The translations under genes and the position numbers were made by a program. A model generated the notes under the pieces. That model saw nothing but the letters and a program-made list of their open reading frames with translations, did not search any database and had not been told where the DNA came from. Of a stretch of DNA of 12,712 bases, positions 1,767-1,818 are shown piece by piece. Numbering within the stretch: the stretch's first letter is position 1; each line of letters opens with the position of its first letter. The DNA is taken from IMG/VR virus record IMGVR_UViG_3300045988_154913, positions 1 to 12,712 of that record. The stretch is one strand, 5' to 3'. Origin of the DNA: a virus.

Positions 1767-1818
1767 AAAAAAAAAAAAAAAAAAAAAAAAAAAAAAAAAA
1801 AAAAAAAAAAAAAAAAAA
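1767..1818 (+). repeat. Uninterrupted 52-nt poly(A) (poly(dA:dT)) homopolymer, intergenic
   Basis: Counted from the numbered sequence: A from 1767 through 1818, flanked by ...aattac and catggaaagagg. All three + frames close with stops right after it, and none is in frame with the 1840 gene. Confidence 0.95.

Follow-up and report, generated by a model that had tools for sequence, protein, structure and literature searches.

The window, that is, the whole stretch of 12,712 nucleotides of viral DNA analysed here, carries 52 consecutive adenines, uninterrupted and bordered by C1766 and C1819, in the intergenic region between the end of the endolysin reading frame (1639) and the start of the next gene (1840). 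The best explanation, held with a probability of about 0.65, is a recent runaway slippage expansion of a hypervariable A-run, private to one strain and located in a transcribed untranslated leader, where it would be tolerated, dispensable and at most modulatory. As is typical of slippage-prone mononucleotide repeats (SSRs), the run lies far beyond chance: about 1.5e-19 runs of at least 52 As are expected at an A frequency of 0.365, and the longest other homopolymer of the window has 8 nt. Published comparisons of phage homopolymers give 8 nt as a common length and 12 nt as the longest, in a comparison of N4-like with classic E. coli phages (PMC3670811). The uninterrupted run, its strictly intergenic position and its end 9 nt before the GAGG ribosome-binding site (1827-1830) of gene 1840 had been pointed out in a preliminary description of the sequence, and all three hold, as does the placement of a lysis cassette upstream, where the CHAP endolysin and small membrane-like proteins are encoded.

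The window is a complete linear genome of 12.7 kb, the first and last 354 nt of which are perfect inverted repeats (inverted terminal repeats, ITRs), and with its polymerase, connector, capsid protein and packaging ATPase it belongs to the phi29-like, protein-primed podoviruses (Table 1). Homology searches revealed no terminal protein, for which the gene at 7835-8443 is a candidate; the megablast of the whole window against INPHARED phages gave no match, and the Rfam search, with E values up to 1, returned no pRNA and a single chance miRNA match outside the tract region. By DNA polymerase, the closest cultured relatives are podoviruses of 11-12 kb, namely Enterobacter Entb_47, Acinetobacter Phanie, Pectobacterium DU_PP_III and Salmonella astrithr/Astrid (~42% polymerase identity), followed by Amedibacillus AD70P2/P3 (34%), all of them treated as phi29-related in a review (PMC11476376). 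The phage species is common in human gut metagenomes, with one small protein occurring in 265 blocks of the collection. Regarding the host, scans of genome contigs with the endolysin and then with the DNA polymerase returned no relatives; the CHAP endolysin, the strong GGAGG-type ribosome-binding sites and the GC content of 33% suggest a Gram-positive member of the Bacillota. The tblastn matches of the endolysin are Staphylococcus and Enterococcus phage lysins.

Table 1. Features of the window, other contigs of the long-allele strain, and A-runs of Claudivirus stitch isolates
Feature, contig or isolate	Position	Strand	Run	Basis or source
Inverted terminal repeats, perfect, 354 bp	1-354 and 12359-12712			sequence
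CHAP-domain endolysin	971..1639	+		PHROG endolysin families, E 3e-28; weak PF05257 CHAP match
Conserved non-coding spacer after endolysin stop, 127 nt	1640..1766	+		23-genome alignment
Promoter-like site TTGTTA-18-TATATT	1726-1755	+		consensus scan, 9 of 12
Expanded homopolymer	1767..1818	+	A52 (T52 on minus strand)	sequence
Ribosome-binding region of gene 1840	1819..1839	+		GAGG 1827-1830
7-codon mini-ORF ATG GAA AGA GGT TTT AAA ACA TGA	1820-1843	+		stop overlaps ATG of gene 1840
Candidate ssDNA-binding protein, OB-fold-like, 112 aa	1840..2178	+		AlphaFold model, BFVD matches
DNA polymerase, family B, protein-primed type				phrog_1907
phi29-type connector				phrog_2038; PF05352
Major capsid protein				phrog_2006; PF25622
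Packaging ATPase				phrog_2150
L002			A52, fully spanned	ERZ501866, SPAdes-style NODE_195
L008			ends with A51	SAMEA728780 scaffold
L007			ends with A31	ERZ501909
L164			starts with A37	ERZ501909
L009			ends with A27	Logan ERR011319
L385			starts with A28	Logan ERR011320
L005			starts with A26	ERR209738, MEGAHIT k127
Stitch (L275/L298)	record ~10777-10916		A140	KX349901
Ademby (L299)	8095-8120		A26	OL744112
RadRaab			A7	
StevenHerd11			A7	

Several other repeated elements were observed along the genome. Each ITR contains two strong promoter-like sites, TTAACA-18-TATAAT at 245-274 and TTGACA-17-TATACT with a TG at 291-319, by which both genome ends would fire inward, as well as two sets of repeats, CTTTAGCAC-type ones at 29-113 and a tandem array of three 25-nt units at 114-188, that might serve as origin sites or bind proteins. 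The 16-nt palindromic motif GTTGCAACGTTGCAAC is present in 7 copies (2210, 5316, 7671, 8443, 10300, 12042 and 12320), mostly just 5' of gene starts or ribosome-binding sites, and it occupies 8-9 syntenic positions in 18 of 18 IMG/VR relatives, and in L028 the spacer preceding the SSB-like gene has gained a further copy; a phage regulator could use the motif as an operator, or it could fold as an RNA hairpin. Two small leftward genes are each preceded by a copy of a 53-nt leader that contains the GTTGCAAC motif and a ribosome-binding site (12017-12069 and 12295-12347; 98% identity, the copies being 278 nt apart). In the left arm, relatives possess an extra segment of ~660 nt with a gene of 214-244 aa (L001, 410-1071), which is absent here (window ~365).

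Numerous independent contigs of the same species were gathered by exact-protein look-ups and pattern scans. Besides the window, one contig (L002) spans the tract with exactly 52 As, and seven others break inside it; these long-allele contigs are 99.87-100% identical to the window, representing one near-clonal strain. The long tract recurs across runs and assemblers (SPAdes NODE, MEGAHIT k127, Logan and METAG scaffolds). In 32 contigs of related genomes, only A4-A9 separates the flanks at the tract site, and both flanks are adjacent and collinear in 22 of the 22 relatives tested, so the tract hides no mis-join or missing segment. Moreover, end-of-read A-calls are excluded, as right-flank contigs start with 26 to 37 As and then continue with CATGG and unique sequence.

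A sequencing or assembly artefact, be it a false low-complexity insertion or a real run of wrong size, is thus considered very unlikely. Suspicion is raised by the breaking of most of the strain's assemblies at the tract, by the 1.9x k-mer coverage of the spanning contig L002, by the origin of all data from one strain, and by the ends of IMG/VR contigs, where 91 of the 125 listed runs of at least 40 A/T are found (34 are internal). However, the run is seen on both flanks in separate contigs, runs and assemblers, it is confined to one strain and one site, and curated genomes of Claudivirus stitch isolates contain A26 and A140; a collapsed k-mer loop is also improbable, 52 not being a usual k-mer size. 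As judged from these assemblies, the tract is genuine phage DNA. An artefact of sequencing, library or assembly, considered in the preliminary description, is therefore largely excluded, and its further concern, that the two flanks might be joined only through poly(A) chimeras, is contradicted by the related genomes with directly adjacent flanks. Illumina reads through long homopolymers are error-prone, and the length of 52 rests on two assemblies (the window and NODE_195 of ERZ501866), the others of the strain breaking within the tract; these breaks are the only, indirect hint of varying length or frequent mutation within the population. The finding of exactly 52 in both is unexpected for a supposedly hypermutable tract, and both may derive from related samples: all long-allele data belong to one strain, the independence being at the level of runs and assemblers and perhaps not of hosts, and the assembly names (QINJ10, NIEL14, PRJEB1220) presumably point to related, MetaHIT-related cohorts. 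Compared to the window, L002 also has three clustered G-to-A changes (window 1555, 1561 and 1572), creating an A10 run inside the endolysin gene (L002 1554-1563), which could be real variants or errors.

The length of the run varies among close relatives with unchanged flanks, as in SSR loci, since the 32 contigs with short alleles have A4 (11 contigs), A5 (11), A6 (5), A7 (3), A8 (1) and A9 (1) at the homologous site, against 52 in the window. Judging from these alleles, the site was already a length-variable mononucleotide run before the expansion. The comparison with related genomes, proposed earlier as a check, found the tract in no other genome of the species, including one that is ~99% identical: this nearest short-allele strain (L001, identity over the flanks) has A6. 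L011 has a spacer architecture identical to the window and A5, and the difference is a clean gain of 47 As. The identity of 99.87-100% among long alleles, the A6 of L001 and the lack of interruptions together point to a recent expansion in one lineage. Only two length classes, A4-A9 and the long allele, are seen at the site, no intermediate length (10-51) having been found; likewise, no allele of at least 9 As was found among the IMG/VR relatives, and in the RAACAAATYACAAAAAAAAA scan for such alleles 0 of 14 IMG/VR matches were related to the window.

Two other ideas on the expansion were rejected. An insertion of a retroelement type or of a poly(A) tail would not fit, as the alleles differ purely in As, with neither a target-site duplication nor added sequence. 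A link between the expansion and the 16-nt indel CGGTCATATAATATTA was ruled out, because L011 lacks the 16 nt and yet has A5. A second expanding homopolymer was observed elsewhere in the species, a T-run following a shared bidirectional terminator hairpin (window 11708-11740; L011 12509-12527), with T6 in the window, T8 in L010 and T19 in L011.

[quoted passage not shown] The tract would then be transcribed within the untranslated leader, irrespective of the promoter used, and be tolerated because leader length and sequence are unconstrained there, with an effect on the expression of the SSB-like and downstream structural genes that would be modulatory at most. It would not be required for the phage life cycle, as close relatives do without the long run, and near-neutrality is assumed from its non-conservation, although the run may benefit this particular strain.

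The spacer after the endolysin stop is almost invariant in the alignment of 23 genomes, whereas the flanking, mostly coding segments are 84-92% identical in most relatives, and by this comparison the spacer is under constraint. As no significant fold (z = -0.56) and no Rfam match were found for it, a promoter or operator is more likely than a structured RNA; a structured RNA at 1640-1766 with an encoded A-tail was rejected on the same fold score and on the A4-A9 of relatives. The weak promoter candidate at 1726-1755, proposed in the preliminary description, was recovered by the promoter scan, its standing being that of a consensus match only. Variation clusters directly 3' of its -10-like hexamer, in the 16-nt indel and the A-run, and also in the Shine-Dalgarno-to-ATG spacing, the last ~12 nt of the spacer, past the hexamer, being the indel-tolerant part; such a pattern would be that expected of an unconstrained leader. 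Further upstream in the spacer, 20-nt tandem duplications (AATAATTAACATTTAYAAAA) were observed in L016 and L027. The tract begins 12 nt 3' of the end of the promoter-like site and lies upstream of the Shine-Dalgarno sequence, with no terminator-like site between them, nor anywhere between 1639 and 1840 in the scan; from this lack of an upstream terminator-like site, the tract should be transcribed whichever promoter fires.

Downstream of the tract, CATGGAAAGAGGT is kept in relatives, and its spacing to the ATG is variable, so that the frame of the mini-ORF, whose ATG lies 2 nt past the tract end, is not conserved. In some relatives an upstream ATG is in frame with gene 1840, and gene callers give products of 119-145 aa. 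A reading frame running across the tract itself (1682-1843, 53 aa, 17 lysine codons) was discarded as mechanical, having a TTG start and no ribosome-binding site, and its conservation as a gene is impossible in the short alleles.

The proposal of gene 1840 as an SSB candidate stands at the level of the fold, its product having no Pfam or PHROG match and its homologues coming chiefly from short or 11-13 kb contigs. The AlphaFold (AF2) model, built with 18 homologues, has a mean pLDDT of 80 and the strand order b1-b2-b3-alpha-b4-b5, which is that of an OB-fold. Its top BFVD matches (TM 0.67/0.74, E 6e-5) are models named 'ssDNA binding protein', which come from small podoviruses and a tectivirus, and in the PDB only weak OB-fold matches were obtained, namely PrgE, Pf3 SSB and RPA (E above 0.2). 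Based on this model, the product is a reasonable candidate for a ssDNA-binding protein.

This SSB candidate gives some ground for an alternative in which the tract is a strain-specific expression device, the poly(A) leader raising or tuning how the SSB-like gene is translated or how stable its mRNA is, or slippage of RNA or DNA polymerase turning the tract into a contingency locus with length variants that differ in expression level. An SSB, which phi29 requires in large amounts, is plausibly encoded downstream as modelled, and the tract ends 9 nt before GAGG, follows a conserved promoter-like block and has no terminator-like site 5' of it. In addition, A-rich elements of the 5'UTR are reported to enhance translation in E. 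coli reporter libraries (PMC5389652), homopolymers of phages have been proposed as contingency loci (preprint 10.1101/2025.10.21.683753), and the strain persisted over several sequencing runs. However, such a device is unlikely, as the tract is missing from 32 other contigs of the species and from 75 more distant relatives, whereas an enhancer would be conserved in homologous leaders, as only two length classes occur in place of a graded population, and as its length goes far beyond that of known enhancers and phase-variable tracts. In a Gram-positive host, which is the probable one, S1-type recruitment is not expected: S1 is not known to play this role in the Bacillota, which weakens an S1-based enhancer if the host belongs to them.

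A role of the DNA itself is still far less probable. Poly(dA:dT) is stiff and resists wrapping, and a rigid, meltable tract could act as an insulator, exclude a coating protein, or serve as an UP-like element or as a replication or packaging signal. Its place between two functional gene blocks, the left-arm unit and the structural operon, would suit such a role, as would the Claudivirus tract, which lies in an early/late regulatory spacer beside a gene annotated as dsDNA-binding protein. On the other hand, the tract is not conserved, relatives function with A4-A9, and no homologue of the phi29 p6-type protein was identified in the window. An UP element would be found ~40-60 nt upstream of a promoter start, but the next promoter-like site on the + strand (1973-2001) is more than 150 nt downstream of the tract. 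Altogether, the enhancer, the RNA polymerase slippage site and the rigid insulator, all proposed in the preliminary description, find no support as evolved, conserved roles in the genomes compared, because no other genome of the species has the tract, not even that of the ~99% identical strain. Functional effects may exist as strain-level side effects.

Long homopolymers are not a general trait of tiny protein-primed phages, a possibility that was rejected with 75 loci: over the 790 kb that these more distant relatives comprise (polymerase identity 39-51%), no homopolymer exceeds 11 nt, and the run of that length is situated at a contig end. The expansions are therefore, on the available genomes, sporadic, strain-level events. 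The 120 stretches listed from IMG/VR viral contigs of varied GC (L178-L297) contain at least 34 runs of 40-187 A or T at internal positions.

One of these internal runs (L275) corresponds to the cultured Bacillus phage Stitch (Salasmaviridae, Claudivirus stitch), whose A140 lies in the divergent spacer between leftward replication genes and rightward scaffold and capsid genes. The Claudivirus stitch isolates are 99.4-99.6% identical, with the run at the same site and with identical flanks, so that run length alone differs (Table 1); five other Claudivirus species have no run of at least 9 nt in the fetched region. The terms homopolymer, polyA and poly-A are absent from the describing paper (PMC9965433), and the promoter scan of the Stitch spacer gave matches equal to the shuffle expectation. 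Claudivirus stitch and the phage of the window are both phi29-like, protein-primed podoviruses. In each, the run consists purely of A on the strand that is sense for the structural genes downstream, and the intergenic spacer around it is A-rich and regulatory. They differ in that the Claudivirus tract is in a divergent early/late spacer, ~185 nt upstream of the scaffold gene, compared to 21 nt upstream of the SSB-like gene in the window, and in that an intermediate length (A26) is present in Claudivirus and absent at the window site. No nucleotide similarity exists between the two, and their DNA polymerases are ~20% identical. The Claudivirus isolates are viable and were plaque-purified, and their series demonstrates that in regulatory spacers of phi29-like phages a short A-run can grow into a very long poly(A) tract that is propagated; we also infer from this series a stepwise path of expansion.

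A broader reading would take the series from A5 to A52 here, A7, A26 and A140 in Claudivirus stitch and T8 to T19 at the terminator as a recurrent, so far undescribed runaway expansion, mainly of poly(A) in phi29-like regulatory spacers. Long alleles would then persist by tuning replication or late genes, as a non-coding contingency locus, and the phenomenon would reflect clamp-less replication independent of mismatch repair. This reading is quite doubtful.

The window tract can also be compared with other known systems. Like the SSR contingency loci known from phase variation in bacteria, and lately suggested in phages T2 and T4 too (preprint 10.1101/2025.10.21.683753), it is a homopolymer that would change length by polymerase slippage and whose site is polymorphic among close relatives. 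However, the tracts of those loci typically have 6-12 nt and are mostly in reading frames, which they switch, compared to 52 non-coding nucleotides here. In a contingency locus, a change in length reversibly shifts the output of a linked gene and yields a selectable phenotype. In Mycoplasma, promoters of the vlp type possess a slippage-variable poly(A) in a regulatory region of a low-GC genome, placed between the -35 and -10 elements, and act via a spacer length of ~17-20 nt. Unlike these, the window tract is 3' of the -10-like hexamer and far longer, and the site at 1726-1755 is the only promoter-like one nearby, which places the tract outside any promoter spacer. The late mRNAs of poxviruses have 5' poly(A) leaders, added by RNA polymerase slippage and not encoded, and the A-rich translation enhancers of bacteria are short. 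If transcribed, the window mRNA would carry an A-only stretch just 5' of the initiation region, similar to poxvirus leaders; the tract is, however, encoded and non-conserved, in contrast to the non-encoded leaders and to the short bacterial enhancers.

Long tracts of this kind also have consequences for sequence surveys. They break metagenome assemblies: none of the six other contigs that encode this strain's endolysin reaches 2 kb, and the tract forms the end of each of the three inspected. They may also draw poly(A) reads in studies based on read classification. 'Bacillus phage Stitch' appears in two microbiome papers on RNA sequencing of human blood (PMC13276348, PMC11521311), which might result from poly(A) reads matching its A140 tract. 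For the biology of the phage, the tract is no evidence for a new regulatory mechanism; it is to be read as a mononucleotide repeat expansion of a size unusual for a phage. A virus of 12.7 kb can harbour and pass on a homopolymer that exceeds the 12-nt maximum (PMC3670811) at least fourfold, which raises the question of how, and how faithfully, a protein-primed polymerase copies such a run, and the cultured Claudivirus isolates, with A7, A26 and A140, make this question directly testable.
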